DNA from: Candidatus Bathyarchaeia archaeon
GTDB lineage: Archaea; Thermoproteota; Bathyarchaeia; Bathyarchaeales; Bathycorpusculaceae
NCBI GenBank assembly: GCA_049512075.1
Contig: JBEKXL010000002.1
Span: 128,001-192,000, forward strand
Length of the DNA: 64,000 nucleotides
Direction of reading: 5' to 3'
The position numbers were made by a program, and so were the translations under genes. This document shows, piece after piece, positions 5,381 through 42,823 of the stretch (position 1 is its first letter; each line of letters begins with the position of its first letter). Below the pieces are notes generated by a model. The model searched no databases. It saw only the letters and a list, made by a program, of their open reading frames with translations, and was not told the DNA's origin.

Positions 5381-5823
5381 GTCTCTGCTTAATACATCTG
5401 ACGTAGTTGCTCTTCCAATGTAAACGTTTCTCAGACTCGTCTTGTTTCTGGCCCTGCGTTTCCCCTTTCTTTGGGAGCGCGCGCCGGTTCTGTGTCTTCC
5501 GTTTGTAGATAGGTTAGGAGAGTTCCAGTAGCGCTCTCTCTCGTCTACCTCCTAGCAAGACGAAGACGGATGCAACGTGGGAAGCTTGGCTTCTGACTGC
5601 AAAATGTTTGGTGTCTGAGTGTGCGGCTTTGCTTCAGGAAAACTCTGTGACCTCTGAAGGCTTCGGCGCTGACCCCCCCCTCCTTTTTCGTAACATCACA
5701 TAACATTGTTTTGTCACGAGCCTCGAAGGGATAGGCGCGCGGGGGAAAGAGCTCAAAGAAAAAGGAAGCTTATCTCGACAGGAAAAGATTTGAATAGGCT
5801 CAGGTTTCTCTTAAAACTGGTGT

Positions 5824-12351: not shown

Positions 12352-12387
12352 TAATGTACAGCCCCGCGCGAGCTAAACAAACACTAA

Positions 12388-12639
12388 CTAGTTTGGCAGC
12401 AGTTCGTTGCAGGCGCGGTAGTGTTGCAAAAATAGGCGTCCTTTCTCTGTGAGGCTGGGTCGAGTTCGGTTTGCTTTGATGTTTTCCTTTTTGAATAGAC
12501 CCGTGGATTCTAGCTTTCTGACTTGATTGTAGTTGACGCCTGCCCTGGCTAGGACCCTTGTTGGTGCCAGGTTGGGCGATCTAACGATTTCCTCCAGAAT
12601 AGCAGCGGCTTGGTCCTTCTTCCCTCTCAGCACACCCAT
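12388..12639 (-). CDS. small winged-HTH protein
   Basis: PTRVLARAGVNY...LTEKGRLFL pattern. Confidence 0.6.
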   Translation of the reverse strand: MGVLRGKKDQAAAILEEIVRSPNLAPTRVLARAGVNYNQVRKLESTGLFKKENIKANRTRPSLTEKGRLFLQHYRACNELLPN

Positions 12640-27318: not shown

Positions 27319-29268
27319 ATGAGCTGCCCAGAAAAAACCGAACTGGAAGAGCGTGAGCCCCGTGAAAGCAAGAGAGTCTGGATTCTTTTAGCATTGGCCT
27401 TTGGTCTAACCATGGTCATTTCAGGTTTGCTGGATCTCTTGCTGAAAGGAGTACCGCTTGGTTTTGTGATACCGTTGCTGAACGAACCTGCAATCGTATC
27501 GAGGGCAGTCTACTATGTTTCTGTCATCGCAGGGGGAGTGTATGTTGGCGTTCTGGGGTTGAAGGAGCTCATCATAGAGAAAAGGTTTTCTGTGGAGTTT
27601 CTCATGTCCCTTGCAGCCTTGGGCGCGGCCTATTTGGGTTTTCTCTTTGAAGCTACGACCGTGCTTTTTCTCTACTCGTTGGCGGAGTATTTCGAAGAAT
27701 ACATTCAAGATCGAGCGACAAGAACGGTTGAGGGGCTTTCGCGGTTCATGCCTGACAAGGCTTCAGTAATTGTCGATGGTTCTGAAAGAACGATTGATGT
27801 AAAAGCAGTCCGGCCGGGAATGACGATGATGGTAAGACCGGGCGAAAGAATTGCAATGGACGGCACTGTGGTTGAAGGCTATTCCTCTGTTGATCAGTCT
27901 CTTGTCACCGGGGAGTCCATTCCAGTTGTAAAGAGAACCGGCGACTGCGTTTACGCGGGCACTGTGAACTCGGGCGGCATCCTCAAAGTGGCTATCAACA
28001 AGGGCGCTGAAGATACGTTGGTGTCCAGAATCGTGAAGCTTGTCATTGAATCCAGAAAGAGAAAGGCGCACATTGAAAAGTTGGTTGATAGGTTCGCTCG
28101 TTTCTACGTCCCGGTTGTTATAGGTCTCGCAGCTTTCACGGCGCTCGGAATCCCAAGGTTGACCGGTGGAGCGTTCAGCACGTGGCTGTACAGGTCGTTG
28201 ATTCTCTTGGTGGTTTCTTGTCCCAGCGCCTTCGTTATTTCGGTTCCGGCAACCATCTTTGCAGCCGTGACCGTTGCCGCCCGGAAAGGAGTCCTAGTTA
28301 AGGGTGGAATCTGCATTGAAAAGCTGGCAAGAGTTAGGGCTATCGTCTTCGACAAGACTGGCACGTTGACTTTGGGCACGCCGGTGGTGAATGATGTTGA
28401 TTCTGTCGAAAAGTCTGATCAGCGAGCGTTGAAATATGCAGCCGCTTTGGAACAGTTCTCGAATCATCCGCTTGCTCAAACCATCGTCAGGAAGGCGAAG
28501 GAGCGCAATCTGGACTATAGTGACCTCAAGGTCGAGGAGGTGGAAGAGGTTCCGGGCAAGGGCATGGCCGGCTATGTTGACGGCGTTCACGTTGTGGTTG
28601 GCAACATGGAGCTCATGAAACAGCACGGTTGCAACTGCGAACAGATAAGCGAGAATTATGAGAGTGAGAAGCACACTGCGGTCTGCGTTTCGATGGACAA
28701 GACTGCTGTGGCCTCTTTCTGTGTCATGGATGAGGTTAGGGGGGACGCGGCTGAAGCGGTGAAAGCCTTGAAGAAGTCGGGGATTCACACGGTGATGTTG
28801 ACGGGGGACAAACGGGAAATAGCGGATGAGGTTGGGAGGAGACTTGAGATTGATGAGGTGCATTCTGAGCTCTTTCCTGAAGACAAGCTGAGGATTCTTG
28901 GTCAAATCAAGGCGGAGTATGGGACTGTTTCGATGGTGGGCGACGGTGTTAATGATGCTCCGGCTCTCGCTGCGTCGGACGTGGGAATCGCGATGGGAGG
29001 CAGCAGAGTGGACGTTGCCTTGGAGTCGGCCGACATCGTGCTGGTCAAGAACGAGTTGTCTCAGATTCCCTACCTGGTTAGGCTCAGCGGCGAGACCGTG
29101 AAAATTGCTAAACAGAACATAATGGCGTCGTTAGCCGTCAAAATCGTTCTCGGCGCCCTCGGGCTCTTCGGGTTTGTTCCGCTATGGTTCACCGTGGCCT
29201 CGGGCGACGACGGCGTGACCATGCTTCTGCTCCTGAACACTCTGCGTCTGGCACAAGTGAAGATTTAG
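27319..29268 (+). CDS. heavy-metal translocating P1B-type ATPase
   Basis: TGES, SCPSA, FDKTGTLT, SNHP, MLTGD and MVGDGVNDAPALA. Confidence 0.95.
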   Translation: MSCPEKTELEEREPRESKRVWILLALAFGLTMVISGLLDLLLKGVPLGFVIPLLNEPAIVSRAVYYVSVIAGGVYVGVLGLKELIIEKRFSVEFLMSLAALGAAYLGFLFEATTVLFLYSLAEYFEEYIQDRATRTVEGLSRFMPDKASVIVDGSERTIDVKAVRPGMTMMVRPGERIAMDGTVVEGYSSVDQSLVTGESIPVVKRTGDCVYAGTVNSGGILKVAINKGAEDTLVSRIVKLVIESRKRKAHIEKLVDRFARFYVPVVIGLAAFTALGIPRLTGGAFSTWLYRSLILLVVSCPSAFVISVPATIFAAVTVAARKGVLVKGGICIEKLARVRAIVFDKTGTLTLGTPVVNDVDSVEKSDQRALKYAAALEQFSNHPLAQTIVRKAKERNLDYSDLKVEEVEEVPGKGMAGYVDGVHVVVGNMELMKQHGCNCEQISENYESEKHTAVCVSMDKTAVASFCVMDEVRGDAAEAVKALKKSGIHTVMLTGDKREIADEVGRRLEIDEVHSELFPEDKLRILGQIKAEYGTVSMVGDGVNDAPALAASDVGIAMGGSRVDVALESADIVLVKNELSQIPYLVRLSGETVKIAKQNIMASLAVKIVLGALGLFGFVPLWFTVASGDDGVTMLLLLNTLRLAQVKI

Positions 29269-29417
29269 CACGTGTCATCTCGGCTCGTAGTCCCAAGAGG
29301 TTAGTGTCCAAGGTTGTGAGGAGTACTTCGACAAAACTCTGTGACCTAGATAAGCCTCGAAGTTGCCTCCCTTTTTGTTTATTTACGTTTTTTGCAATGT
29401 TGATTTGTAAAATTGTA

Positions 29418-29615
29418 ATGTTGTGTTTTTGGCCCCCCTCTTTTTGTTTGTAATGTCAGAGGTAATGTGGATTGTAACAAACCATGAAGAAAACAGGCCT
29501 GGACCTCCCTCCAGAGCTAATCCGTTCCGTTTATTTGTAACGTCAGATGTAGTGTTGCTTTGTAACGTTTCTTTGTCGGCCTCTTACCGTTTCTTGGTTA
29601 CGTCGGATGTAGTCT
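29418..29615 (+). repeat. longest copy of the dispersed non-coding repeat, with three GTAACGTCAGATGTA-like units
   Basis: units near 29450, 29537 and 29597; homologous to 26556-26617 and 50085-50200. Confidence 0.75.
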
Positions 29616-29671
29616 GCAATCGTAATCTGTGGTGAGAAACCCTGAAAAGGTGGACAGGTGCACCGTGCGGA

Positions 29672-29745
29672 TGCGGTCGCCGGGATTTGAACCCGGGTCG
29701 TCGGCGTGGGAGGCCGATGTCCTAGCCAGGCTGGACTACGACCGC
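29672..29745 (-). tRNA. tRNA-Gly(CCC)
   Basis: GCGGTCGTAGTCCAGCCTGG...TCGGC-CTCCCAC-GCCGA...GGTTCAAATCCCGGCGACCGCA. Confidence 0.95.
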
Positions 29746-29804
29746 ACAATGTCTTGGAAGCTGACAAGATGGAAAATGGGTTTGAACTTTTATTTAGCTT
29801 TCTC

Positions 29805-31547
29805 TTATACAAGGTTATAGACGGCAGAATCGGCAGACTGGCTCAGAATCGCTTCTCTCTTTTCGGAGGCTTCTTTTGGCCGCGAATACATTCTTTTTGA
29901 GAAGTAAACTGTAGCTACTATGAGAACTGCTGTGCCGGCCGCGAAGATGTACATTAGGCTGCGTACGTTCTGCAGATTCTGGTTGTCGCCTGACAGGTGC
30001 TGTTGATAAGAAGCGTTCAAATCCTGATAGCTTTGTTGAAGCTGACTGTAGTTTCCTAACAGATTGGCGTAGCTGTTGAGGAGTGCGTTGTAGGTGCTGT
30101 TTAGGTTGTAGAAGCTTTTTATGATGGGCAGTTGGGCAGTGTAGTTGCTGAGGAGTTCATAATAGGTTGCGTTCAACGCTAGGAAATTGCTTAGAAGCTG
30201 ATTATACAGATCCAGAGTTCTCGAAGAGATTATCAGAACTGTCTGATTGCTGTGCGAGTAAGTGAAATACAAGTAGCGAAATGCGGCGTCTTGGCTGCTC
30301 ACCCAAGTCGGAGCAATTTCTCTATCGCCAACGAGTACCATAACCGAAGTGTTCATTAACCCCGTTGGAATCGCAACCCGCGAAAAACCAACAGTGCCTT
30401 CTACACCGGCGACATTAAACAGTATTATTCTGTTTCCCGTTTCTATCCCAATTTCAAATTCGAAGCCAGAGACTGTAGAATTGCTGACAACTGAGATTTG
30501 GTAGGTTTCACCGACAAAGGTTGCAGTGGAGCTGGAGAATTTTCCCATTAGAGGATGATTGTCTCGGTTGTTTGGAGCTACGGTGTAGCTCTCGATGCCT
30601 ATTCCGTCTCCGCGATTATGTCCCGTATAGTTGCTCCAGTAGTTCCCTTCACCGCCGAAGTCCCATATGTTGGAAGGCGAAGTGCTGCTAACCTGAAATG
30701 CGTCGAAAAAGTTATTGTCGTAGAAGATATTTTGATAGCAATACAGCGAAATAGTCTCCCCTGCAGGATAATTATCATCAAGAGTGTTGTCCGAAAACAC
30801 GTTGCCCCCAGAAGAGTACAGATAAAGCCCTCCGTAGGCACCATAGTTGTTTGAAATCGCGTTTGCTGAAAACATGTTGTTGCTCGAAGCGATAAGGGCA
30901 ATCCCGCCCTGGGAATTCCCTGTTATCACATTATCCGAGATTGCGTTGCCGCTTGAGGATGAGAGGGTGATTCCCTGTTGATTGTTCGTTATTGTGCTGT
31001 CCGAGATTGTGTTGTTGCTTGAGGATGAGAGGGTGATTCCCTGTTGATTGTTCGTTATTGTGCTGTCCGAGATTGTGTTGTTGCTTGAGGATGACAGATT
31101 CATTCCCTGTTGACAATTACTCACCGTGTTTCTATCTATCGTACTTCCTTTCGAAAGCGTCACACTTATTCCGCTGTTGGGGTTTAGGTTAAGGGCGCTT
31201 TGAATCGTGAAGCCTTCGACTGTAACGTTGTCAGCCGTTATGCTGATGACGAACTGGCTATTCTGTCCGTTTATGATTGTCTGATTTGGGTCTTCGCCGA
31301 TTAGAGAAATGCTTTTGTTGATCTGCAAGCTTTCGTTGTACATCCCTGCACTCACAAGGATGGTGTCTCCCGCCGTTGCGTTGTTGATGGCTGCCTGAAT
31401 CGACTCAGACGGGCTCACTGTTACACTTGTCGAGCCTGCCTTTGCAGACAATTCGAATCTCGAGGGTAATGCCAAGAGCAAGCAGAAGACAATACAAAGA
31501 ACTGAAACGATTTTTTTCAATCTGAACGATTTCTTCTCGTTGCGCAT
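29805..31547 (-). CDS. NosD/CASH right-handed beta-helix surface protein with C-terminal membrane anchor
   Basis: SIQAAINNATAGDTILVSAG, SSSNNTISDSTITNN repeats (66-bp near-perfect tandem at ~30950-31110), GNYWSNY and TM helix; start taken at MRNEKK. Confidence 0.85.
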   Translation of the reverse strand: MRNEKKSFRLKKIVSVLCIVFCLLLALPSRFELSAKAGSTSVTVSPSESIQAAINNATAGDTILVSAGMYNESLQINKSISLIGEDPNQTIINGQNSQFVISITADNVTVEGFTIQSALNLNPNSGISVTLSKGSTIDRNTVSNCQQGMNLSSSSNNTISDSTITNNQQGITLSSSSNNTISDSTITNNQQGITLSSSSGNAISDNVITGNSQGGIALIASSNNMFSANAISNNYGAYGGLYLYSSGGNVFSDNTLDDNYPAGETISLYCYQNIFYDNNFFDAFQVSSTSPSNIWDFGGEGNYWSNYTGHNRGDGIGIESYTVAPNNRDNHPLMGKFSSSTATFVGETYQISVVSNSTVSGFEFEIGIETGNRIILFNVAGVEGTVGFSRVAIPTGLMNTSVMVLVGDREIAPTWVSSQDAAFRYLYFTYSHSNQTVLIISSRTLDLYNQLLSNFLALNATYYELLSNYTAQLPIIKSFYNLNSTYNALLNSYANLLGNYSQLQQSYQDLNASYQQHLSGDNQNLQNVRSLMYIFAAGTAVLIVATVYFSKRMYSRPKEASEKREAILSQSADSAVYNLV

Positions 31548-31552
31548 ACAAA

Positions 31553-32197
31553 TCACCTTGCATCTGGTTGGGCACGCAGGTCTAGTCTTGACAGCATCCT
31601 TCCGAGAGCAACAGAACCTGCTATTGCGATCGAAAAAGCAGACACAAAAACTATCGCACTGATAGCCGGCTGCATAACCTCCCAAACAATAGCCGCGTAC
31701 GATCCGACAACTGCCAACACAAGAGTAAACGTGTAAACCCTGACCTTGACACTACCGAGTTTGCCCGACCCTTCCTGAAGCTGACTTAGCGCCGAGTTCA
31801 GCAGGTTCTGCGCCTGTTCAATCTGTTCGTCCGTTGCCAAAGCCGCCATGTTCTTGTCGATGTCTTGGAATTTGAAGCTTAAAAGAGCGTATTTCTGCAG
31901 TTCCCAAGGTTTCTTCTTTGGCAGGATCTTGACTATGCCGCTCTTCTCCATTTTCTTCAATATTGTCTGGATTTTCCGTACAAGCTGAACGTCCGCTGTT
32001 TTCTCCTCTCCATACAACCTCTGTATGATGTCTTTAACATCTGGGAAACACAGTTCCAGCTGAAAGGAAGCTATTGCCTTGGCGAGACCGAACTGGTGTT
32101 CGCCCTCACGCAAGCGTATACTGCTCAATTTATAATCCGCTTTAAGGGCCTCTTGTAAGAACTCTGTCTCGCTTGGCGTCAATCTGGGCTCTGACAA
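31553..32197 (-). CDS. conserved hypothetical protein with wHTH-like N-terminus and two C-terminal TM helices
   Basis: long ORF with typical composition. Confidence 0.65.
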   Translation of the reverse strand: MSEPRLTPSETEFLQEALKADYKLSSIRLREGEHQFGLAKAIASFQLELCFPDVKDIIQRLYGEEKTADVQLVRKIQTILKKMEKSGIVKILPKKKPWELQKYALLSFKFQDIDKNMAALATDEQIEQAQNLLNSALSQLQEGSGKLGSVKVRVYTFTLVLAVVGSYAAIVWEVMQPAISAIVFVSAFSIAIAGSVALGRMLSRLDLRAQPDAR

Positions 32198-32318
32198 GCT
32201 GGTCGCCTATTCAATACTTTCAGTTGAAACAATATAATAAATGCTTCGTGGCCTGAATACATATTTTCAATAGTTCTGAGCTTCCCAAGGTTCAATTTCA
32301 ATTCATTCAACGGAAACA

Positions 32319-32711
32319 ATGCGTAATATTGTCAACGAACCTATGTATATTACGGTGCAGAGTATGGCAAACCGTGTTAGAACCGTGGATATGCTGTGCC
32401 TGCCGCCAGGCAAAAAGTATAATCTGAGCAGCCTGCAACCTCTGCACAAGAAATACAGAAGCCACTTCGAGATCATTGGCTTGGTACTTGAAGCCGTAAA
32501 GGCTGACAGTGCCACTCCCTTCTCCATCATGAAACACGCAAACGTCAACTTCATGCAACTCAAGAAATACCTAAAGTCTCTAACTGAAATAGGCTTCCTT
32601 GAAGTTGAAATCAAGAGAAGCACTATTTCCTACAGAGCAAGCAAGGAAGGTCTTGAATTCCTAAAACAGTATTATACTCTGATTGAGATGCTGTTGACCG
32701 CTCGGATCTGA
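32319..32711 (+). CDS. winged-HTH transcription regulator
   Basis: YRSHFEII...IMKHANVNFMQLKKYL...SKEGLEFL. Confidence 0.75.
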   Translation: MRNIVNEPMYITVQSMANRVRTVDMLCLPPGKKYNLSSLQPLHKKYRSHFEIIGLVLEAVKADSATPFSIMKHANVNFMQLKKYLKSLTEIGFLEVEIKRSTISYRASKEGLEFLKQYYTLIEMLLTARI

Positions 32712-32949
32712 AGAGAAGAAAGCCTTGCAACGAACAACGTTGCTTGACTAACATGTGACCTTCGGCACAGAATTCTATCGAGTCAAACTGCGCACGTTTT
32801 TTCGATGTTCAATGCCTCCTTAAGAATTTGATTCGTTAGCGCGCCGTGGCTTTGGGCCGTCGTGAGGCGGCGGATCATGATTTTCTGTCGGCACAAGATT
32901 ATTAAACACACCTTTTTCACTAAATAACATCTGCCTCAACTAAGGAGGA

Positions 32950-33150
32950 ATGTTGTTGCCCCGAAAATTTACTTACTCAAATGCCGGTGTCGACAGGGAG
33001 TTAAGAGCTCATTCTAAGAAGGCACTGGGTTATCTTAAGAAAACCTACGGTTACAGCCATTACGGCAAACTCGTCGATCTTCCATATGGGAAGATTTTTC
33101 CAGGGATAGACTGCTACTTTGGCTTGGTCATTGAAGGTGTGGGCACAAAG
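32950..33150 (+). pseudogene. purM: N-terminal fragment of the native AIR synthetase
   Basis: TYSNAGVD...IEGVGTK; homology stops where an inverted-repeat element starts at 33151. Confidence 0.82.
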
Positions 33151-33312
33151 GGATTAGACCCCGAACGAGACTGTGTGAAAACTCGGGTCGCTTTCAGAAA
33201 ATTGCTTGTTTTATGTGTAAAAGGCTGACCTTGGGACGTGTTCTATACATGTAGAGCGCAATTTCTTGAAACAAATTTGACTTTTCACACAGTCTCGAAT
33301 GGGGTCAAGTCC
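33151..33312. mobile_element. MITE-like element
   Basis: perfect 16-bp IR CGAGACTGTGTGAAAA (33166-33181 / 33282-33297) inside a 10/12 outer IR (33151-33162 / 33301-33312). Confidence 0.75.
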
Positions 33313-33409
33313 AACTGTCAAATTCTTCAGCGCTCGCGCCGACAATTTCATCCTTGTCCCCAAAAATCCTTCCATTTTATAAAGATATCAAACGAATAGA
33401 CAATTGAAA

Positions 33410-33891
33410 GCGCGCTGCCTTGTCCCTAAAATGGTTAAAAATGGTTATAAGTCCGTTTTTGCTTGTCTGAGCCTGAAATGGACTTCTTTGACGAACGCGT
33501 TTTATGCAGCGCTTAAGGACGGCAAACCCAGAAGCTTCACAGTGCTTCTGAGCGAAGTGGGGTTTAGCCACAACACTTTGCAGCAGCATCTCAAGCGTCT
33601 AACGGCTCAAGGTCTCATTGTCAGGGAGAAAGCAACCGCGAACAGTTTCGGAAGACCCAAATTTGCCTATCATGTGCCATCCAAGACCACGAAACAGGTC
33701 ACCGTCGCCCTCCAACATCCACGCGTTGAGCTCGTGGCCCTCCCGTTTAGTCGCTTAAGGCACGTTTGCAGGTTTGAGAAGGGCGGTTACTGCAAAGAAA
33801 GAAGGAGGGGCTGTGCGCCTCAAAACTGCCCCCAAACCCGAAAATAGGAATTATGACCATTTTACACCAATTTCGGGACAAGCCAGCGCGC
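33410..33891. mobile_element. TIR element copy B, flanked by GCGCGC
   Basis: same inverted ends as 10698-11000. Confidence 0.8.
33478..33847 (+). pseudogene. wHTH protein with C-terminal Cys4 cluster, apparent +1 frameshift after codon 9
   Basis: ATG 33478 gives MDFFDERVL then an early stop; the shifted frame gives AALKDGKPRSF...FSHNTLQQHL...GRPKFAY...CRFEKGGYC...CAPQNCP. Confidence 0.65.
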
Positions 33892-34049
33892 TATGCAGAT
33901 CTGGAATCAGCACATTTGGCATTCAGGATCCTCGCCTTCCTATATATTTCGACATATGTTCGGAGTGATCAGAGGGTTTTTTGCCATTCACCTAACCACG
34001 ACGTTGAGAGGCAGGATCGAATTGCACATATGCCGTGCCCCTTTCGAGA

Positions 34050-35153
34050 TTATGCAAAATAGAATTTCCCCCTTTTCGGATCTCCGATGATGTTCAAGGG
34101 CTTTAATACAATCTTCTTCTCGGGGTCTTTTCTGGCATATCCCAAAACAAATGCTTTCTTATGATGTTTTTCTATTAGTTGAACGGCATCATCGATCTCT
34201 TGACGCGGAAGGACCACACAGAGCCCAATTCCCATGTTGAACACTCGATACATCTCAGGGAGATCCAATCCTTTCATGTATTGCATCATTAACTCGAAAA
34301 TGGAATGCGGTTGCGGTAACTGTTCGATGACATAACCGATATTTTCTCCCATACGTGCCAGGTTTAGTAGTCCATCACTTGTTATGTGGGCTACATTCTT
34401 CAAATGTAATCCTGCTCGGACCAAATCCATGAATTCTTGCACGTAGATAGATGTCGGTTCTAATAATTCCTCGCCTAGTGTTCTTCCCAGCTTATCAAAG
34501 TACATATGAACATCAAAGTTCATATGTTTGAAGAAAACGTTTCTGGCCAACGACATCCCATTCGTATGGATGCCAGAGCTTGCAATCCCAATAACAGCGT
34601 CATCAGGCTCTATCAAGTGACCATCGATTATCTTGTCTGGGTGCACTATTCCTACTCCAAGACCTAATAGATCAAAACCATAATGAGGTCGCGCTCCGTT
34701 TATCATATCGGGCAATTGGGCTATCTCGCCACCAACTATGTTGACTCTTGCCATTTTTGCACCGGTTCTCAGACCCTTAGTTATCTCTTCTAATAATGAG
34801 GGATTTGCCTCCTGAACACCTAGATAGTCGACCAACGAGAGGGGCTCTGCTCCAGTGCAAATTATATCGTTGACAATCTGTGCGACACAGTCTATTCCAA
34901 TTGTGTCATACTTGTTCATCATTTGCGCAATGAAAACCTTCGTTCCAACACCATCAGTCTTCAAAGTCAACCCAATATTCTCAGATATCCTTATCATTCC
35001 TGCATAGTGTCCTATCGGGATCAAACACTCTCCGACACCTTTTCGGTATCCGAAGGTATCCTCAAGAATAGGAATCATGCGCTTCAGAGCTATCTCTTCT
35101 GTTTTGTCGTCAACACCGGACACTGTATACATAGCGGGATTGTCACTCTGCAT
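34050..35153 (-). CDS. purM: phosphoribosylformylglycinamidine cyclo-ligase (AIR synthetase), second and intact copy
   Basis: YTVSGVD, TDGVGTK, GIDCVA, VND, GGEIA, SSGIHTNG, LLEPTSIY, HIT and FNMGIG. Confidence 0.92.
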   Translation of the reverse strand: MQSDNPAMYTVSGVDDKTEEIALKRMIPILEDTFGYRKGVGECLIPIGHYAGMIRISENIGLTLKTDGVGTKVFIAQMMNKYDTIGIDCVAQIVNDIICTGAEPLSLVDYLGVQEANPSLLEEITKGLRTGAKMARVNIVGGEIAQLPDMINGARPHYGFDLLGLGVGIVHPDKIIDGHLIEPDDAVIGIASSGIHTNGMSLARNVFFKHMNFDVHMYFDKLGRTLGEELLEPTSIYVQEFMDLVRAGLHLKNVAHITSDGLLNLARMGENIGYVIEQLPQPHSIFELMMQYMKGLDLPEMYRVFNMGIGLCVVLPRQEIDDAVQLIEKHHKKAFVLGYARKDPEKKIVLKPLNIIGDPKRGKFYFA

Positions 35154-35434
35154 TTTCTATTCCCTCACTTCTTCCTTGGAAGCTCGATTTTCGAGGGATC
35201 TAGTACTTAAGCTCTACTCTTTAATATCTCTTCCAGTTTGCTTTTTTGCCCTCAGTTAATAACATGACAGCACAGCGCGCTCTCTCAAATTAACTAGCAA
35301 GCACTTCAGATTCTCCTTAACAGTCATCACCAACTTTCCATGTACACAAACTTGGAAAGCCTTAAGTTGCAGCAACATGAGTTTAGAAATAATAGTGAAT
35401 TAATGATAACCCGGAAACTCAATGGGGAGAAGTC

Positions 35435-36826
35435 ATGTCCGACCTTGAGTATTTTGTAGGTTCTGCACAATTTGCGGCTCTCGAACCATCTTGGGCAGGC
35501 ATTCAAAGCGAACGGCGACTTCGTGGTTTGTTGATCTTGGGGGCTCTTTTCAACAAGGTTCTCTATATTCACGATACGCAGATTGCTGACAACCCTTACT
35601 TGCTTGATTCGTACAGACGGAGACAGGAAAGTTTCAACAATCTTTTCGATATTATTACGAAATTGGTCGAAAATAATGTCGTGCGTGTTGGACTACGTGA
35701 CTTTACCTACATCGCTAAGACAGGCCAAAATGTTCAATGCGATTCCCTTTCCGATGTCTTTTCTTCGTGGGTATATCAAGACATGGAAAGAGCTTGGGTC
35801 GTACCACCTCGTGCAAAAGACAGGGTATATCTCTTAAAAGATTTCGATGAGATTCTAGGCCATTCCAATGTACTGCGCTATCCCTACACAGCCGTCAAGA
35901 AGGAATTCATGCGCAGAACGCGCAATGCTCTGGATCCCTCTAAGAATCCGACTCATCATCATGAGTTTGAAAAATTGCCTGCAAGTCTCCGAAAGAAGTA
36001 TGCAAGCATTGTCAAACGTGATTGGTTTTCTCATTCTGACATATTTGAGCTCCTGCGGAAGTCTAATATGAGCCTATCAAGCCCCTTCGTGCAGGCTCAT
36101 GGGCTCTTTGACGAAAGCGCATACGCTCACTGGAACCGGTCGCGCTTGCTAGGCTGCAATGCATCTACATGGAATGCAGAAGAGATGGTGACAGGATATG
36201 AGAAATCAGGGAGTAGGATGTCGTTTGGATCGATGACGCATGCATCGTTGCAGAAATATGCTCTTCGGACGCTGAACGGGGCTGGTTTGTCACTCATTGC
36301 AACCCTGACTCCAAGTGAGATATTGGTGCTAAGGGAAAAAGCTCAGACGCTTTTTCAGACAGTCGAGTTCATCGACGATTGCAATTCATTGAGTGACATT
36401 TCTGAACTGCGAGACAACTACGTCGAAAGCGTTGCAGATTACTGGGGTGATATATGTTCGTATCTTGTCAAGACTAGACCTTCGTTCACCCAAAGGCGCA
36501 CTAGAATTGGGATATTCGCTAGGGACAAGCTTCCGAGGATTCCCCGATGGTTGGGAAAGGTGGTCTCACTTTCAATTAATCTTGGACTTGACTTTTCAAA
36601 ATTGCCGGTTGTGAACGAATTGAACAGAAAGGAAAGGCGACAGCTATTTGACAATTTGTCACTAAGATTTCTCTTCTTTGCGGACACGTCAGCGGTTACG
36701 CGTCTAAAAACTATGTTTCCGAAGAGGAATTGGATGTCGAGATACTATGAAGATGCTCATGGGACTGAAAATTGCGTGAGTGGAAGATGCTCCAGTGGCC
36801 CAAGTTATGCAGCATTTCGATTGTAG
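35435..36826 (+). CDS. hypothetical protein (463 aa)
   Basis: long ORF, no motif recognised. Confidence 0.7.
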   Translation: MSDLEYFVGSAQFAALEPSWAGIQSERRLRGLLILGALFNKVLYIHDTQIADNPYLLDSYRRRQESFNNLFDIITKLVENNVVRVGLRDFTYIAKTGQNVQCDSLSDVFSSWVYQDMERAWVVPPRAKDRVYLLKDFDEILGHSNVLRYPYTAVKKEFMRRTRNALDPSKNPTHHHEFEKLPASLRKKYASIVKRDWFSHSDIFELLRKSNMSLSSPFVQAHGLFDESAYAHWNRSRLLGCNASTWNAEEMVTGYEKSGSRMSFGSMTHASLQKYALRTLNGAGLSLIATLTPSEILVLREKAQTLFQTVEFIDDCNSLSDISELRDNYVESVADYWGDICSYLVKTRPSFTQRRTRIGIFARDKLPRIPRWLGKVVSLSINLGLDFSKLPVVNELNRKERRQLFDNLSLRFLFFADTSAVTRLKTMFPKRNWMSRYYEDAHGTENCVSGRCSSGPSYAAFRL

Positions 36827-36887
36827 CGATTGAAGACGTCGCAGGAGTGTGCGTATGAGGTATAAGTGTGTGTGAATAGTGACGTAG

Positions 36888-37853
36888 ATGGATGATTTCA
36901 GATTACCATCAAAGCTATACATGCTGAGGAAAACCTTCGAGCTGGACAGCCGCATTAGGAACAAGAAATCCATTGATAGTCTAACGAGACGTTTGCTCTT
37001 GGGTGTCCCTCTTGGGCATCGAACTGATATTAACGCGAGGCTTGAGAAGTTCTGGGCACGCGAGCATGCCTACTACACTACTCTCTGCGAACAGACGGGA
37101 AAGAAATACTCAGAGTATCTTCCAGGACGAGAGTATACTTATGTTCTTCTCAGAGATATCGTTTTGAGAATAACCGGAGAAAAACAACCGAACGTTCTAG
37201 ATGGCGGGTGTGGAAGTGGAATCGCTTGTGCTCTTCTCGGCAAGAAGGAAGCGAATGCAACTGGTCTCGATATTACTCGCTCTGCTTTAGAACTGGCAAA
37301 GGCAATTTCAGGAGAATATAGGACTTGCGTGAAGCTTGTGCGTGGCGACTTAACTAGCCTGCCATTTCAAGACTGCACATTCGATGTTGTTTTTTCACTA
37401 GGTATCTTTGAGCACTGTCCACCACAAATCCAAAACAGGATTTTTGGAGAGTTCGTCAGAGTGAGTAAGCGTGGGGTTTTGTTGGCTGTCCCCAACAAGA
37501 ATAGCCCAATCTACCAAACCATGTCTGAGAGCGAATTCAAACTGATGCCACCTTCTTTAGTCTACCCGGAAGAGCGCGAGCAGTTTCCGGTTGATTTTTC
37601 CTTTTTTTCAAGTCACAGCGGCATACCAATGCTCGAATCTTCTGCCTTTCATATTGTACCTCCAAAGATAATTCCTGGAAAGCATCTGACCAGAGAGTCT
37701 TACCGTTTTTTTACAGGGGTGACCCAACATGCTTTGCAAGTCTGGAATGGCGAACCAATCACTACTTGGTCTTTGGTCGAAAACAGCTGCTCTCTTGAGG
37801 AAAAGGCCAAATATGGGTGGTTTTCGTATGCGATCTATGAAAAACAGTGCTAG
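36888..37853 (+). CDS. class I SAM-dependent methyltransferase
   Basis: VLDGGCGSG, GLDI, GDLTSLPFQDCTFDVVFS and FEH. Confidence 0.9.
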   Translation: MDDFRLPSKLYMLRKTFELDSRIRNKKSIDSLTRRLLLGVPLGHRTDINARLEKFWAREHAYYTTLCEQTGKKYSEYLPGREYTYVLLRDIVLRITGEKQPNVLDGGCGSGIACALLGKKEANATGLDITRSALELAKAISGEYRTCVKLVRGDLTSLPFQDCTFDVVFSLGIFEHCPPQIQNRIFGEFVRVSKRGVLLAVPNKNSPIYQTMSESEFKLMPPSLVYPEEREQFPVDFSFFSSHSGIPMLESSAFHIVPPKIIPGKHLTRESYRFFTGVTQHALQVWNGEPITTWSLVENSCSLEEKAKYGWFSYAIYEKQC

Positions 37854-38019
37854 AAGTTCGCCTGGTGTTTGTTGGCAGGCCAGCCCAAAACAACAGTCTT
37901 GGCGTGGGATTTTTCCTATCCTGTTCTTGAAGTCAGAAACACAACAATATGCCACTTTTCAAGCTCGTTTCAATAATCAATACTTAATGCAATATTACGA
38001 TATCACTGCGTTTTTGTGA

Positions 38020-38679
38020 GGTCCACCTACGAAACGCGTATACTATCTATGTGGAGCCCCGTGGACCGGAAAAACTTCCGTGTTGCATTCACTTGCTAAA
38101 ATGTATGCATGTACTCTTATTCCAGAGTTCTTTGTAAACTACCCTGACTATTTCCTTTCTCTGACAGTCACTTCTAAAGAAGGAGTAAAGAGGGCTTCGA
38201 TAGATTGGGTTCTTGCCCAATATAGAAGAAAAGAATGCTTGATTAGATCGGCTAAGGGCTTAGTTATTTGCGACAGATCGCCCCTTGATCTGATTGTCTA
38301 TTCGCTAGCATTTGGAAGTAAAATATACGTTGAGACTGTGAAGAAGATGAAGAAAATTGAATGGAGTTCCGGCAGACTAATCCTTTTGCTCGTACCGAAA
38401 GCGGACGAATTGCTTAGAAGAATCCGCACAAGAAACCATTTGGATTCCTTTTCAAGCAACAAAATCCTAAATGGGCTCGTTATGCCGCTTGAGAACGAAT
38501 ATGAAAGATTGTACAATGTAATAAGGTCTACATGGATATCTACTGATTGTTCCCTTCAATGCGTCGTTAGAAAAATAGCATCTATCCTACAGGAATCGTA
38601 CACGCCGACTGACCTGAACAAGTGGATAAAAACTCTGCGCCTTAGTTGCTCTGAAGACGACACTATTCAGAAGTGTTAG
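38020..38679 (+). CDS. P-loop nucleoside/nucleotide kinase (dNK/TMPK-like); start unclear
   Basis: in-frame GAPWTGKTS P-loop upstream of the called GTG (38080), ICDRSPLD motif, LLRRIRTR lid; in-frame TGA at 38017-38019. Confidence 0.7.
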   Translation, partial: GPPTKRVYYLCGAPWTGKTSVLHSLAKMYACTLIPEFFVNYPDYFLSLTVTSKEGVKRASIDWVLAQYRRKECLIRSAKGLVICDRSPLDLIVYSLAFGSKIYVETVKKMKKIEWSSGRLILLLVPKADELLRRIRTRNHLDSFSSNKILNGLVMPLENEYERLYNVIRSTWISTDCSLQCVVRKIASILQESYTPTDLNKWIKTLRLSCSEDDTIQKC

Positions 38680-39094
38680 AAAATGTGTTGACGAGGGCTA
38701 ACGAGCTGGTTTACACGGAAGGCCAAACTAAAAATCCTCCTGTGTGAAAGACTCTTTGAGTAAAGGATTTATCCTCGTCATATGATTGGTCCTTCAACGA
38801 TCAGCCGTCCAAATATCTCCTGCCTTCTTACAACTTTTTTCGCTATCATATTCAAAGTCCATAGTCTCTCAATGAATCACTGGGGATTGATAGAGCTGGA
38901 ATAGACAACCAGAAAACAGAGAAACTCTTGATGGCGCTGCGCACTCTCGAGCGCGAGGATGCTCAGCGCACCAAAAACGTGCGCGTGTAAAGGCCTGATG
39001 GATACGAACCTGTTCGGATCGGAGTCTCTAGGTACTTGTTGCTCAGCTCGCCAAGAAATTTGACACTATCGGCGTTGACGGCGTAGCGCGCGCG

Positions 39095-39319
39095 ATTCAG
39101 GAGACTGCGGCCGACCTAGGTGGAACAATATCAGAAGAAGAAATGTTCAAGACGTTTAACATGGGATGGGGCTTCGCCCTGATAGTTAACAAAGAGGACG
39201 GCGAGAGGGCAATAGACGTTCTGGAAAAAACTGGCACAGAGGCTGAAAAGATAGGTCGCGTGACCTGTGCAGAAGGGGTCAAGATTCTCTACAAGAACAG
39301 AAACATTGCTCTGAAGTAA
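39095..39319 (+). pseudogene. purM: C-terminal fragment of the native AIR synthetase
   Basis: IQETAADLGGTISEEEMFKTFNMGWGFALIV...KIGRV...*; starts immediately after GCGCGCGCG; directly upstream of purS. Confidence 0.85.
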
Positions 39320-39374
39320 CGTTTGCCTTGTTAATGTGGAAAGCGTTTAAATCTGCTTTTGCCCAGTTTAGCCT

Positions 39375-39626
39375 ATGAAGTACCGCCTCAAAATCGAAAT
39401 CAGCTTAAAGCCCGGACACAGCGACCCTGAAGGAGAGACCACCGCGGGCTTGTTGAGGGAGCTGGGCTACAACGTTGAAGCTGTCAACGTCGGCAAAGTC
39501 TACAGAGTGATTCTTAATGCTTCCTCCAGAAAAGAAGCGCAGGCTGAGGCTGTGGAAATGTGCAAGAGGCTCTTGGCAAACCCGACTAAGGACGATTATG
39601 GGATACGTTTCGAGGAGACAAGATGA
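39375..39626 (+). CDS. purS: FGAM synthase subunit PurS
   Basis: LKPGHSDPEG...MCKRLLANP. Confidence 0.95.
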   Translation: MKYRLKIEISLKPGHSDPEGETTAGLLRELGYNVEAVNVGKVYRVILNASSRKEAQAEAVEMCKRLLANPTKDDYGIRFEETR

Positions 39627-42004
39627 CGGCAAGCCTGTTTGTCCGCAGGAAAACCCCCTTTTCCCTCGTTGACGTGATGGTTCTCGGAGCCTCTGACGAG
39701 CAGCTTCTGGAAATCAGCCGCGAGCTTGGCTTGGCCCTTAGCCTGCACGAGATGAAGATGGTAAAAGAGCATTTTAGCAGGAGGGGACGGAACCCGACCG
39801 ATGCCGAGCTTCAGACCATCGCTCAAACGTGGTCTGAGCACTGTTTCCACAAGACTTTCAAGGACAGAATCAGGTTTGACGGAAAACTGATTAACGGTCT
39901 TTTCAAAACGTACATTGCAAGTGCGACGAAGAGGATCAGTCCGGACTGGTGCTTCTCTGTTTTCGAGGATAACGCGGGCATCGTGAACTTCGACAAAGGG
40001 TACGGCGTGGCCGTCAAGGTTGAAACGCACAATCATCCGTCGGCGGTGGAGCCTTTCGGCGGCGCGGCAACGGGGACGGGCGGCGTCATCCGAGACATCT
40101 TGGGCGTGTGGGCGGATCCGATAGCGTGTACGGATGTGCTGGGTTTTGGGCCCTTGGATTTTGAGTATGAGAAGTTGCCCAGCGGTGTTAAGCATCCGAG
40201 GTACGAGTACATAGGTGTCGTGGCGGGGATAGGAAGCTACGGCAACAACATGGGAATTCCAACAGTGAACGGAGCGATATACTTCGATGAGAGCTACACG
40301 GGCAACGTTGTTGTCTACTGCGGCTGCGTGGGCCTGCTTCCGTTTGACAGGTTCAGGAGGGATGCGAAAGCCGGTGACGCGATTGTGCTTGCGGGTGGCA
40401 AGACTGGTCGGGACGGTGTTCACGGGGTGACTTTTGCGTCTGCGGAGCTGACGGAGAAATCTGAGACGGTTTCTCGGCCGGCCGTGCAGATCGCGAACCC
40501 TGTTGAGGAGGAGAAATTGAAGAGGGCAATCGTTCAGGTCCGAGACATGGGGCTGGCATCAGGCATAACGGATCTGGGCGGTGGAGGCCTATCTTCGGCG
40601 GTCGGCGAGACGGCCAACAAGTACGGCTGCGGAGCAGTGGTTGACCTTGACAAGGTACCATTGAAGTATGCGGGGTTGGCTCCGTGGGAAATCTACGTTT
40701 CAGAGTCACAGGAAAGAATGCTGCTGACGGTGCCGTCTGACAACGTTGAAAAGGTTCTCAGAGTCTTTGGCGGAGAGGATGTTGAGGCGACGGTCATCGG
40801 GAGACTGATTTCCGGCGGATTACTGAGGCTTGATTATATGGGTGAGAGGGTTGGGGAGTTGGGCATTTCCTTCCTTTTCAAGCCGCCGAGAATCACTAGG
40901 ACGGCGGAGTACCATCCTGCAGGTGATGCGGAGCCGATGTTTCCGGAGCCTGAGGACTTGAATGAGGTGTTAATGCGGGTTTTGGCTTCGCCTAACGTGG
41001 CGAGCAAGGAGAGTGTTGTGAGGAGTTATGATCACGAGGTGAAAGGGCACACGGTGCTTAAGCCATTGCAGGGCGAGTTTGGCGGGCCAAACGATGCGGC
41101 CGTGTTGAAGCCGCTGGATGATTCTTGGAGGGGCATAGCGGTTTCGTGCGGCATGAACCCAAGTTACGGAAGGATTGATGCTTACTGGATGGCGGCTTCA
41201 GCGATTGATGAGGCCGTCAGGAACAACGTCGCTGTTGGCGGAAGAAGAATTGCTTTGCTGGACAATTTCACGTGGGGCAATCCCGAAAGACCTGAACGAT
41301 TGGGCAGCTTGGTACGGGCCTGCGAAGCGTGTTACGATTTTGCCGTTGCTTTTGGGACGCCGTTCATATCTGGGAAAGACAGCTTGTACAACGAGTCGCC
41401 GCTTGGACCCGTGACGCCGACACTTCTGATTACGGCTCTAGGGTTCATGCCTAATATTCGTTCAACGGTTTCGATGGATGTTAAGGCTTCGGGCGATTCT
41501 ATGTACGTTGTGGGCGAAACTTTTCCGGAGCTGGGCGGCTCAGAATATTACAAGCTGAAGGGATGCTTGGGCAAGTCTGTTCCCAACGTGCGTGGTGCTC
41601 AGGCTAGGAAAGGGTTCAAGGCGGTTACTAGGGCGATTGACCATGGGCTGGTTAAGACGTGCCATGACCTGTCTGAGGGCGGTTTGGCCGTGGCGGCGGC
41701 GGAGATGGCTTTTGCCGGAGGTTATGGGTTGGAGTTGGATTTGGGCAAGGTTCCGGCGAAAGATCTGGGACGTGATGATTTTGTCTTGTTTTCGGAGTCG
41801 AACAGCAGGTTTCTTGTGGAGGTCTCTGGGAAGGCTCGGGACGAGTTTGAGGGTTTGATGAAGGGCGTGGTTTGTGCTGAGGTTGGCAAGGTAACAAAGT
41901 CTCCTCGGCTGTGTACCAGCGGTCTGGCTGGTGGAGTGATTGTGGACGCTTCGTTGGGCGATTTGTTGAAGAGTTGGAAGAGAACCTTGAGCAGTGGGGT
42001 GTGA
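39623..42004 (+). CDS. purL: FGAM synthase subunit PurL
   Basis: WSEHCFHK, KVETHNHPS, GAATGTGGVIRD, DLGGGG, SESQERM and CHDLSEGG. Confidence 0.97.
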   Translation: MTASLFVRRKTPFSLVDVMVLGASDEQLLEISRELGLALSLHEMKMVKEHFSRRGRNPTDAELQTIAQTWSEHCFHKTFKDRIRFDGKLINGLFKTYIASATKRISPDWCFSVFEDNAGIVNFDKGYGVAVKVETHNHPSAVEPFGGAATGTGGVIRDILGVWADPIACTDVLGFGPLDFEYEKLPSGVKHPRYEYIGVVAGIGSYGNNMGIPTVNGAIYFDESYTGNVVVYCGCVGLLPFDRFRRDAKAGDAIVLAGGKTGRDGVHGVTFASAELTEKSETVSRPAVQIANPVEEEKLKRAIVQVRDMGLASGITDLGGGGLSSAVGETANKYGCGAVVDLDKVPLKYAGLAPWEIYVSESQERMLLTVPSDNVEKVLRVFGGEDVEATVIGRLISGGLLRLDYMGERVGELGISFLFKPPRITRTAEYHPAGDAEPMFPEPEDLNEVLMRVLASPNVASKESVVRSYDHEVKGHTVLKPLQGEFGGPNDAAVLKPLDDSWRGIAVSCGMNPSYGRIDAYWMAASAIDEAVRNNVAVGGRRIALLDNFTWGNPERPERLGSLVRACEACYDFAVAFGTPFISGKDSLYNESPLGPVTPTLLITALGFMPNIRSTVSMDVKASGDSMYVVGETFPELGGSEYYKLKGCLGKSVPNVRGAQARKGFKAVTRAIDHGLVKTCHDLSEGGLAVAAAEMAFAGGYGLELDLGKVPAKDLGRDDFVLFSESNSRFLVEVSGKARDEFEGLMKGVVCAEVGKVTKSPRLCTSGLAGGVIVDASLGDLLKSWKRTLSSGV

Positions 42005-42007
42005 GTT

Positions 42008-42823
42008 GTGAAGCGTGGGGACATTAGGGTTTGTGTTTTGCGTGTGGGTGGAACCAATTGTGATGCGGAGACGAGGCTTTCGTTCGCAGCGTTGGGTGTG
42101 CAGGCAGAGGTTGCGCATGTGAATGAGGTTGTGAAGAGGAATAGTCTTTTGGAGTATGATGTGCTGGTTTTTCCAGGGGGTTTTTCTTATGGGGATTATG
42201 TTCGGGCTGGGGCGATTTGGGCGAAGTGGATTCTGGCTAAGCTGGGTAAGGAGTTGAAGGCTTTTGTCGATGAGGACCGTCTGATTCTTGGGATTTGTAA
42301 CGGTTTTCAAGTGCTCGTCGAGACGGGTCTGCTGCCAGGCTTTGAAGGAATGAGCCCTTATCCTGAGGCGGGGTTGGCCACAAACTTTCCGCCAGGATAC
42401 AACTGCCGCTGGATAAGCCTAAAGCATGAAAACAGCGGAAAATGTGCGTTCACCTCGCAAATTCCAAAGGGAAAGGTTCTGCACGTACCAGTCGCGCACA
42501 GCGAAGGCAGGTTTCTATTTCAGAAAGAGAAGGAGAAGCAGTATCTCGAGAAGCTTAGGGAGAATGATCAACTGGTCTTCCGATACTGCAACAAAGACGG
42601 CGATTACGCCAAAGGCAGTTTTCCCACGAATCCGAACGGTTCTTTCCATGATATAGCAGGCATATGCAACCCAGAGGGAACAGTGTTCGGGCTAATGCCG
42701 CACCCTGAAAGAGCATTCTACTGGTGGCAACAAGCCGACTGGACAGAGCAACAGAAGATGTCGCAACACGGCGATGGAAAACTGATCTTTGAAAGCTTGA
42801 TTAATCATTTGGAAAAAATCTAA
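42008..42823 (+). CDS. purQ: FGAM synthase glutaminase subunit PurQ
   Basis: GTNCD, PGGFSYGD, GICNGFQ, NPNGS and MPHPER. Confidence 0.97.
   Translation: MKRGDIRVCVLRVGGTNCDAETRLSFAALGVQAEVAHVNEVVKRNSLLEYDVLVFPGGFSYGDYVRAGAIWAKWILAKLGKELKAFVDEDRLILGICNGFQVLVETGLLPGFEGMSPYPEAGLATNFPPGYNCRWISLKHENSGKCAFTSQIPKGKVLHVPVAHSEGRFLFQKEKEKQYLEKLRENDQLVFRYCNKDGDYAKGSFPTNPNGSFHDIAGICNPEGTVFGLMPHPERAFYWWQQADWTEQQKMSQHGDGKLIFESLINHLEKI

Follow-up and report, generated by a model that had tools for sequence, protein, structure and literature searches.

Introduction

How an organism can keep the de novo pathway of purine synthesis when its purM, the gene for aminoimidazole ribonucleotide (AIR) synthetase, has been cut apart is the question raised by one locus of a Candidatus Bathyarchaeia archaeon (assembly GCA_049512075.1, contig JBEKXL010000002.1). 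The stretch of DNA analysed here, referred to below as the window, comprises 64,000 nucleotides (G000:C2:128001-192000, with G000 denoting the studied genome), and all positions are numbered within it. Upstream of purSLQ, the native purM of G000 is interrupted by a block of 5.88 kb that itself carries a complete, phylogenetically foreign purM on the opposite strand. As discussed below, this arrangement very probably represents a late intermediate stage of xenologous gene displacement (XGD) of purM, a term used here as it is defined in PMC1274311.

G000 is a metagenome-assembled genome (MAG) of 2.73 Mb in 86 contigs, with a completeness of 99.76% and a contamination of 4.19%. Its closest available relative, G002, in which the DNA of purSLQ is 91.5% identical, serves as the reference for the native purM; PurL of G000 shows 94% identity to its counterparts in both G001 and G002. 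The public sequencing runs that contain this DNA are metagenomes from peat and wetland. Ten runs hold part of the stretch, four of them, which may be source samples, containing a proportion of 0.99 of the sampled words, and two further runs, from other studies, contain 0.65 and 0.60. Four runs were examined as per-run contigs (Logan), among which X1 and X2 may be source samples and X6 belongs to a different study.

A first-pass annotation of the locus had suggested four checks, namely the phylogeny of the purM fragments versus the intact copy, the coverage of the junctions, a search for other copies of purM, and a search for the intact allele in relatives. The results given in the sections that follow bear out its core observation, a foreign purM inside a broken native one, but correct the anatomy, and they support its interpretation in part.

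Results

Two lesions in the native purM

The list of open reading frames (ORFs) and the three-frame translations place the native purM upstream of purSLQ in three open pieces on the plus strand (Table 1). The outer two, identified already in the first-pass annotation as the first 67 and the last 74 codons flanking an insert, align readily with the native PurM of G002. The 5' piece is 89.4% identical in amino acids over 66 aa to residues 3-68 of that protein (185 of 195 nt identical), and, together with the flank that precedes it, lies in a match of 93.7% DNA identity (blastn, 30953-33151 to G002 L036 12793-10596) that assigns it to the host lineage. The 3' piece is 72.4% identical over 87 aa to residues 276-362, matches AIRS_C (5e-8) and positions 283-330 of TIGR00878 (42 bits), and begins a match of 90.7% identity that continues to 42822 (39094-42822 to G002 L036 9940-6213).

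Between these pieces the annotation had placed a single insert of 5944 bp, with the middle of the gene missing. The locus in fact contains two lesions, an insertion of 5,881 bp and a separate deletion of 600 bp, and a third native piece survives. This middle piece reads VLVAQLAKKFDTIGVDGVA and is the direct continuation of codon 67. Compared with G002 from residue 70 onward, it is 83% identical over 24 aa by BLAST, whereas aligned alone all 18 of the 18 scored codons are identical in protein; at the DNA level, 39030-39087 corresponds to G002 L036 10598-10541 at 93%.

The first lesion is a clean insertion, 33151-39031, located exactly between codons 67 and 68 with zero native bases lost, so that the native sequence is interrupted between ...ACAAAGG and TACTTG.... 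The trinucleotide AGG is found at both edges (33149-33151 and 39030-39032), and it can be a 3-bp target duplication or microhomology equally well. The second lesion, 56 bp further on, removed nt 264-863 of the gene as numbered in G002 purM. The run GCGCGCGCG, which had been taken for the right break of the insert, is the scar of this deletion and lies 56 bp inside native sequence, not at the insert edge. The scar (39084-39096) reads AGCGCGCGCG, and its first 7 nt equal the terminal motif of MITE-B, a repeat described below. The resemblance of AGCGCGCGCG to the MITE-B tip, AGCGCGCT, might go back to a MITE-B that has since been lost, or it might be due to chance, and is of use as a lead only.

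Split by 5,881 bp and lacking 600 bp, the native gene cannot be functional. Its three pieces are nonetheless free of stops and frameshifts. In 157 codons compared, with G003 and G004 as outgroups, the changes specific to G000 are 2 nonsynonymous and 3 synonymous, and those specific to G002 are 3 and 3. Since no trace of relaxed constraint is seen, the disruption is young relative to the split between G000 and G002.

Table 1. Features of the purM locus of G000, with positions numbered within the window.
Feature	Position	Strand	Description
Native purM, 5' piece	32950-33150	+	codons 1-67, ending ...EGVGTK; its open frame enters the insert, with a stop at 33228
MITE-A	33151-33313		163 bp, terminal inverted repeats of ~31 nt, no ORF; its tip is the exact left edge of the insert
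Spacer	33314-33408		95 bp between the two MITEs; no other match in G000, none in L086 or L087
MITE-B copy	33409-33892	+	484 bp, terminal inverted repeats of 52 nt (83% complementary), tips AGCGCGCT
Foreign purM	34050-35153	-	367 aa, intact; TIGR00878, Pfam AIRS and AIRS_C
463-aa protein	35435-36826	+	cassette gene, divergent from purM; no known family
Methyltransferase	36888-37853	+	321 aa, S-adenosylmethionine (SAM)-dependent; Methyltransf_25 4.8e-17, Methyltransf_11 5.2e-17
AAA_28 gene	38020-38679	+	nucleotide-kinase-like; AAA_28 5.2e-5 (L087 copy 9.4e-12)
Unique right end of insert	38680-39031		352 bp, ending ...CTCTAG; single copy in G000
Native purM, middle piece	39032-39087	+	about 19 codons
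Filler	39088-39093		GCGCGC, scar of the 600-bp deletion; net loss 594 bp, in frame (blastn and printed junctions)
Native purM, 3' piece	39094-39319	+	last 74 codons and stop
purS	39375-39626	+	intact native operon partner; PurS 3.8e-21
purL	39623-42004	+	intact native operon partner
purQ	42008-42823	+	intact native operon partner

The junctions in metagenomic contigs

Across the 21.1 kb compared (24053-45153), the window has a match of 100% identity in a contig of 80 kb from a metagenome, and per-run contigs of X1, X2 and X6 bridge both junctions of the insert. The left junction is spanned in all three runs by a contig of 986 nt that matches 32500-33216 with 0 differences and reaches 66 nt into MITE-A. 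The right junction, together with the deletion scar, is internal to contigs of 6,208 nt in X1 and 5,309 nt in X2, both starting at ~33863, and in X6 it is crossed by a contig of 288 nt (38785-39072). The depth in X1 and X2 is 41-48, alike on the flanks and on the insert. Positions 33216-33862, which consist of repeat DNA, are represented by short unitigs only, and the joints seen in the runs are all internal to MITE-B copies. No per-run contig of the four runs joins 33150 to 39032 or shows an allele with MITE-A alone, although such contigs cannot show rare variants.

The foreign purM

The divergent, full-length purM that had been reported on the opposite strand is borne out. It scores 330.5 bits with TIGR00878, above the equivalog cut-off of 236.35, and covers positions 3-329 of the 332 of the profile; both Pfam domains are found as well (AIRS 1.1e-22, AIRS_C 1.3e-17). 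Its protein matches 18 PDB sequences at E <= 1e-20, the best being 9jzy (E 8.5e-82, residues 9-347 to 4-325). TIGR00878 finds five places in G000, of which the foreign gene alone exceeds the cut-off. The other four are the native 3' piece, ThiL (259.7 bits), HypE (367.4 bits), and a HypE-like paralogue.

Compared with 22 PurMs of the native type, collected from the genus, family, and order, the foreign PurM is 33-38% identical, and it is 53% identical to the foreign PurM of G001. In a sample of the class, in which 224 of the 401 genomes have a match at 1e-30, matches in family f1 are at 35-40%, and the best ones outside G000, at 49-56%, come from families f15, f17, and f23. The sources of these three families give their members the names Bathyarchaeota or Hecatellales, and PurMs from genomes of the class are the same, or almost the same, as database proteins that are attributed to Candidatus Bathyarchaeota, Bathyarchaeia, or Hecatellales. 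A quick tree of 103 rows and a careful tree of 48 rows agree. In the latter, the native PurMs of the order, including those of G002, G003, and G004, form one clade (100/100 support, stem 1.42), whereas the foreign PurM groups with L086, L087, and P0002 (4 rows, 100/100), then within 7 rows (100/97), and finally within a clade of 16 rows (99/99). This clade otherwise consists of metagenomic proteins and stands beside the Bathyarchaeia of f15, f17, and f23, so that the donor was most likely another, unsampled lineage of Bathyarchaeia. A viral origin was considered and rejected, since IMG/VR yielded one locus, at 42%, for the foreign PurM and 0 loci for an alignment of the family of the neighbouring 463-aa protein.

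Most of the genes of the early purine pathway are located in the window. In addition to purSLQ, purD (53256-54602) and purF (54781-56154) lie on the minus strand ~11 kb downstream of purQ. In G000, purF, D, C, E, B, S, L, and Q are all open; purF scores 322.6, purD 260.2, purC 192, purE 144.2, and purB 528.2 bits, three of these being just under the curated cut-offs. Judged by the family to which it belongs and by the other pur genes kept in G000, the foreign gene is presumably expressed and active, and would supply all the AIR synthetase activity of an otherwise intact de novo pathway. Because no other purM in G000 exceeds the cut-off, loss of the island would be expected to remove AIR synthetase.

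Anatomy of the insert

The left break had been reported to coincide with an inverted-repeat element, and it falls on the exact tip of a MITE (miniature inverted-repeat transposable element), here called MITE-A. A second copy in G000 (C1:273140-273301) is 95% identical, with the homology stopping exactly at both tips, and a third, in G002, is 96% identical over positions 13-146 and occupies a different context. With three copies in G000 and G002, MITE-A is short, non-coding, bounded by terminal inverted repeats, and present in multiple contexts, as is typical of MITEs. No target-site duplication flanks the C1 copy. The 25-nt core of the terminal repeat occurs only twice in G000, with no other matches to the repeat that could mark an autonomous parent, in an assembly that is incomplete for repeats.

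MITE-B is far more abundant, with 80 blastn hits genome-wide, 40 and 36 matches to its tips, and a usual size of ~305 bp. The copy in the insert carries an ORF for a 147-aa Lrs14/ArsR-like helix-turn-helix (HTH) protein (33404-33847; HTH_20 1.1e-5, Lrs14 5.9e-10). Another HTH-bearing copy is present on C35:499-897 (46% aa identity), and some copies measure 914-1,115 bp. It is unusual for a repeat family to carry the gene of a small DNA-binding protein.

Four cassette genes follow the two MITEs: the foreign purM, the gene of the 463-aa protein, the SAM-dependent methyltransferase, and the AAA_28 gene. The codons for the Walker A motif of the latter, GAPWTGKTS, lie between a TGA (38017-38019) and the first start, GTG 38080; located upstream of the first usable start, they indicate that the gene is probably disabled at its N terminus. 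The right end of the insert is found in 1 of 201 genomes of the family, G000 only, and its edge shows no inverted-repeat terminus with up to 5 mismatches allowed. None of the five ORFs of the insert encodes a recombinase, integrase, or transposase recognizable in Pfam, NCBIfam, PADLOC, or PHROGs, and no transposase gene matching the MITEs was found in the assembly. The 5.88-kb block, having neither a recombinase nor matched ends and only the 3-bp AGG at its edges, does not have the make-up of an island driven by an integrase or transposase.

The 463-aa protein has no family in Pfam, NCBIfam, PADLOC, or PHROGs. It has 16 homologues among 5.8 billion proteins and is present in 1 of 401 genomes of the class (G000 only). 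Its AlphaFold2 model has a mean predicted local distance difference test (pLDDT) score of 65.6 and is confident only at residues ~10-240 and 280-350. Foldseek returned 0 hits for this model against the PDB at E <= 0.001, and the best VIA-align match, to PIN/VapC-like chains, has a Z of 5.0, below the noise guidance of the tool. Atlas features point to clusters of bacterial hypotheticals. An Atlas lead to DUF6236, based on 16% of the members, was dropped, as a Pfam search of 14 members at E <= 1 did not recover DUF6236. Assignment to a defence system was likewise rejected: PADLOC is blank for the 463-aa protein, AAA_28, and purM, and the methyltransferase resembles mad2 weakly (9.7e-13).

The cassette in other contexts

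All four cassette genes recur, with their relative order unchanged and at 77-82% nucleotide identity, on two contigs from metagenomes, L086 (10.5 kb) and L087 (14.5 kb), whose PurMs are 87% identical to the foreign PurM of G000. Beyond purM, both contigs carry an additional gene of 333 aa that is missing in G000. The homology between G000 and these contigs ends ~30 nt into this missing gene, at the tip of MITE-B, and at 38651 on the opposite side. L086 and L087 share, at 98.3% identity, a segment of only 6,189 bp, outside which they are unrelated on both sides; one of their breaks is at a MITE-B copy and the other just past a different shared repeat. The cassette has at least three different surroundings, and repeats lie where these break off. 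A search by DNA found it in 0 of the 4 other genomes of the genus, a result that lacks a positive control and therefore shows little, and neither a second copy of the cassette nor an empty donor site is present in G000.

Comparison of G000 with L087 gives ratios of nonsynonymous to synonymous substitution rates (dN/dS) of 0.089 for purM, 0.12 for the 463-aa protein, 0.17 for the methyltransferase, and 0.17 for AAA_28, at dS of 0.76-1.4, values that indicate purifying selection on all four genes. The first-pass annotation had proposed that an island made essential by its purM would lock in its cargo. This appears to hold for purM alone. Cargo genes can be lost one by one, and part of the cargo is already decaying, as seen in the damage to AAA_28 and the absence of the 333-aa gene; no recombinase able to excise the island as a whole was recognized. 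Beside the two sister cassettes are genes of types typical of defence islands, encoding a SIR2-TPR protein of 813 aa and a STAND-type ATPase of 943 aa (L086 7914-10355; L087 10891-13722).

Native and foreign purM in the family

G002 and G004 retain an intact native purM directly before purS. A purM of the foreign type is present in 4 of the 332 genomes of the family (E <= 1e-90), G000, G001, G461, and G499, which belong to three genera; the other 328 have no foreign-type match at this threshold. The four genomes differ in the state of the native gene. In G461, the native purM adjoining purL is intact, with an open frame of 363 aa (255.7 bits, 69% to G002), and the foreign gene, also intact, is found on a contig of 14 kb, the flanks of which have 73-84% nucleotide identity to G000. 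In G499, a single contig of 2.17 Mb, the foreign gene is intact at 2.148 Mb, and a full-length native pseudogene is located upstream of purL at 0.187 Mb, the two copies being 1.96 Mb apart. This pseudogene has two frameshifts (an extra A in an A-run and the loss of one nucleotide near nt 836) and a TGA replacing a Trp codon. The extra A (L154 ~5500-5520, minus strand) falls in the GVGTK codon at which the insertion of G000 is also located, which is probably a coincidence between slippage in a homopolymer and an insertion. G000 is next, with the foreign gene intact inside the split native gene. In G001, which is 77% complete, the foreign gene is found 255 kb from purSLQ, among glycolytic genes, and the place of the native gene upstream of purS is taken by 1.4 kb of repeat-rich non-coding DNA; for a native remnant in G001, tblastn at E <= 10 gave chance-level hits only.

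The foreign genes of G001, G461, and G499 share 78-87% identity with one another and 53-55% with that of G000, and with so low an identity between the two groups at least two foreign types must have entered the family. For comparison, the native PurMs of G002 and G461 are 69% identical, and PurL of G000 is 78% identical to that of G461 and 71% to that of G499. The mutual identity of the foreign genes, being higher than these native values, hints at their spread among genera rather than old vertical descent.

Rearrangement of the purM locus is seen in three of the five genomes of the genus. In G003 (L037 10813-13733), an intact purM is followed by 2.9 kb before purS that contain two ORFs for membrane or secreted proteins, as well as a scrap (especially 12069-12390) in which a 157-bp purL fragment is fused to a duplicate purM 3' end. 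The arrangement in G003 points to a recombination-prone purM/purS boundary in the genus.

Families f4, f5, and f10-f12 of the same order (G021, G022, G027-G029; L030-L034) have no ordinary PurM match. They contain instead an AIRS-family protein of 389-403 aa that scores 88-166 bits with TIGR00878 and forms a very long-branched clade (stem 2.1). It is a third PurM-like type within one order, and possibly another displacement.

Other features of the window

A third repeat family (29361-29570; 65 blastn hits) adjoins tRNA-Gly(CCC) (29669-29746, minus strand). Collinearity with G002 flips in this region (29304-29746), being forward for 28000-29304 and reversed for 29412-33151. The same repeat family also occupies the place of purM in G001. 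A 626-aa surface-type protein is encoded on the minus strand (29805-31685) and includes near-identical internal repeats of ~66 nt at 30934-31113 (blastn self-matches vs L085, G002).

Discussion

Probable displacement of purM

Two features expected of gene displacement are found at this locus. The incoming gene is phylogenetically foreign, separated from the native clade with strong support, and the ancestral orthologue is inactivated, being split and shortened with no substitute above the cut-off elsewhere in G000. We consider it very probable that these reflect a displacement of purM that has reached a late intermediate stage. The suggestion of the first-pass annotation, xenologous replacement in situ, is supported with regard to the foreign clade and to the physical position inside the native gene; the foreign gene, being on the opposite strand, has the locus of the old gene in common with it but not the transcription unit.

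How the block came to lie in purM is a matter separate from the displacement itself, which is well supported, and the mechanism of insertion and the order of events can be reconstructed only conditionally. The cassette of purM, the 463-aa protein, the SAM methyltransferase, and the AAA_28 gene would have brought a foreign canonical purM, and, with two resident MITEs, it makes up the block now found in the native gene. The history with the fewest events would be that the cassette entered purM directly, with the 600-bp deletion occurring afterwards. As the cassette supplied a substitute, its insertion into purM would have been harmless. An alternative order, in which the foreign purM had entered the genome before the native gene was struck, is equally allowed, and we see the chances of direct insertion of a purM-bearing fragment as about evenly balanced.

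Several points weigh against displacement as the reading of this locus. A second purM may be present on an unbinned contig, G000 being a MAG of 86 contigs with measurable contamination. The foreign purM does not restore the operon context, since it is on the strand opposite to purSLQ; although inside the old gene, it is separated from purS by 4 kb, in which there are three unrelated genes. The composition of the insert is ordinary, its GC content falling in the 12th and its tetranucleotide distance in the 69th percentile of 423 genome windows, although such an unremarkable composition fits a related donor. The left 740 bp of the insert are resident repeat DNA, and the block was thus not built in one step. 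In the family series, the stage of G461 with both copies intact depends on the binning of a MAG of 270 contigs. Finally, the chance that the block landed in a purM of 1.1 kb in a genome of 2.7 Mb is ~4 in 10,000, and no targeting mechanism was found. This last coincidence is softened by the rearrangement of the locus in three of the five genomes of the genus and by the window having been picked from a very large scan.

A different, two-step course would also lead to the present arrangement, and we hold it to be possible though doubtful. The foreign purM would have settled elsewhere, rendering the native gene dispensable; MITE-A would then have hit the native gene, and the cassette would have been moved or copied beside MITE-A by repeat-mediated recombination, with a 3-bp microhomology as the right joint. 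Such a course agrees with the other three cases in the family, in which the foreign gene lies away from the native locus, with the left edge of the block being the exact tip of MITE-A, which is resident, mobile, and low in copy number (G000 and G002 have 3 copies, in 3 contexts), and with the finding that in L086 and L087 the surroundings of the cassette always break at a repeat. It nevertheless takes more events than direct insertion, the cassette must still end up in purM, and G000 has neither a second cassette copy nor an empty donor site. The absence of a contig with MITE-A only counts against it weakly, as contigs drop rare variants.

It might also be that the foreign purM serves a nucleotide-related pathway of the cassette itself, formed by the PurM-like enzyme, the methyltransferase, the kinase, and the 463-aa protein, while the organism salvages purines. 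The synteny of the four genes, kept under low dN/dS at the considerable dS reported above, the defence-island-like neighbours of L086 and L087 (SIR2-TPR, STAND-type ATPase), and the membership of purM in the phage auxiliary gene families of PHROGs (1.3e-56 for this protein) would all accord with such a role. We nevertheless judge it quite unlikely, given that the foreign PurM is short-branched within ordinary PurM clades and matches solved PurMs end to end, that eight other pur genes are open in G000, which is not expected in a salvager, that damage has already occurred to the kinase-like partner in both G000 and L086, and that relatives are practically lacking in viral contigs (1 hit for purM, 0 for the 463-aa family). 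An assembly or binning chimera, in which an insert from another organism was joined to the purM pieces via shared repeats, is hardly credible: coverage of 33216-33862 solely by short unitigs, with a MITE-B depth of hundreds to >1,000 there, would permit it, yet the left junction recurs on the same contig in three runs, the right one is internal to contigs of 5.3-6.2 kb, the depth of flanks and insert is equal, MITE-A has only two copies in the genome, and the native edges are contiguous to the base, which is not what a chimera would produce.

Comparison with known systems

As in XGD, the ancestral orthologue of G000 is lost and its role presumably passes to a family member gained by horizontal transfer, and the neighbouring purSLQ stay native. 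XGD is, however, normally inferred from trees afterwards, whereas in G000 the native remains still flank the incoming gene, and one family supplies all four stages. The incomer of G000 also lies on the opposite strand with unrelated cargo, rather than simply in the operon slot of the old gene. Displacement in situ within operons was reportedly described by Omelchenko and colleagues in 2003.

Phages and integrative and conjugative elements (ICEs) integrate into tRNA genes or the 3' ends of protein genes and carry a replacement for the displaced part. The likeness lies in a hit in a needed gene that is harmless, as the function can be kept with what the element supplies. The difference is that integration in these cases depends on a site-specific integrase, and that what is duplicated is no more than the displaced end of the gene concerned; the insert of G000 brings a complete, distant gene (33-38%), and no integrase or att-like repeat was found, only the 3-bp AGG. 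Composite segments bounded by MITEs are similar in that non-autonomous inverted-repeat elements lie at the block edges and also where the contexts of the sister copies break. Unlike these, the block of G000 has a MITE tip at one edge only, its two MITEs are not of one family, the assembly yielded no transposase that matches, and the other copies show no target-site duplication.

Word searches of a subset of the open-access literature found no account of this case or of a displacement intermediate with flanking remnants. The locus is a new example of a known process and not a new kind. It is unusual for the native remains on both sides, the small cassette present in multiple contexts, and the complete series of stages in one family.

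Implications for purM exchange in the family

The series as a whole shows that the usual route is redundancy first and decay second, and G000 may be the one case in which acquisition and inactivation were the same event. Three other genomes of the family, with the foreign copy elsewhere, have displaced or are displacing the native purM; a position inside the native gene is thus not required, and in G000 it may be incidental.

We can speculate, although we think it improbable, that the purM cassette is a self-complementing mobile unit, able, through the substitute it carries for an essential biosynthetic gene, to settle in the resident copy and to destroy it. The host would then depend on the element, a metabolic addiction without a toxin; the repeated arrivals of foreign purM, of two types and in three genera (4 of 332 genomes), would reflect such elements circulating in peat Bathyarchaeia, and the 463-aa protein could belong to the mobility or maintenance machinery of the element.

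That a housekeeping gene has been displaced is usually concluded from conflicting trees, when the event is long past. In the present case, a single archaeal family presents side by side genomes with the native gene only, with both genes intact, and with the native gene frameshifted, split, or gone, a datable and testable series for the exchange of a core biosynthetic gene. With its three deeply separated types, the MITE-rich genomes, and the cassette breaks that always fall at repeats, PurM is unusually replaceable in this order. The phylogeny of purM in this group should not serve as a vertical marker.

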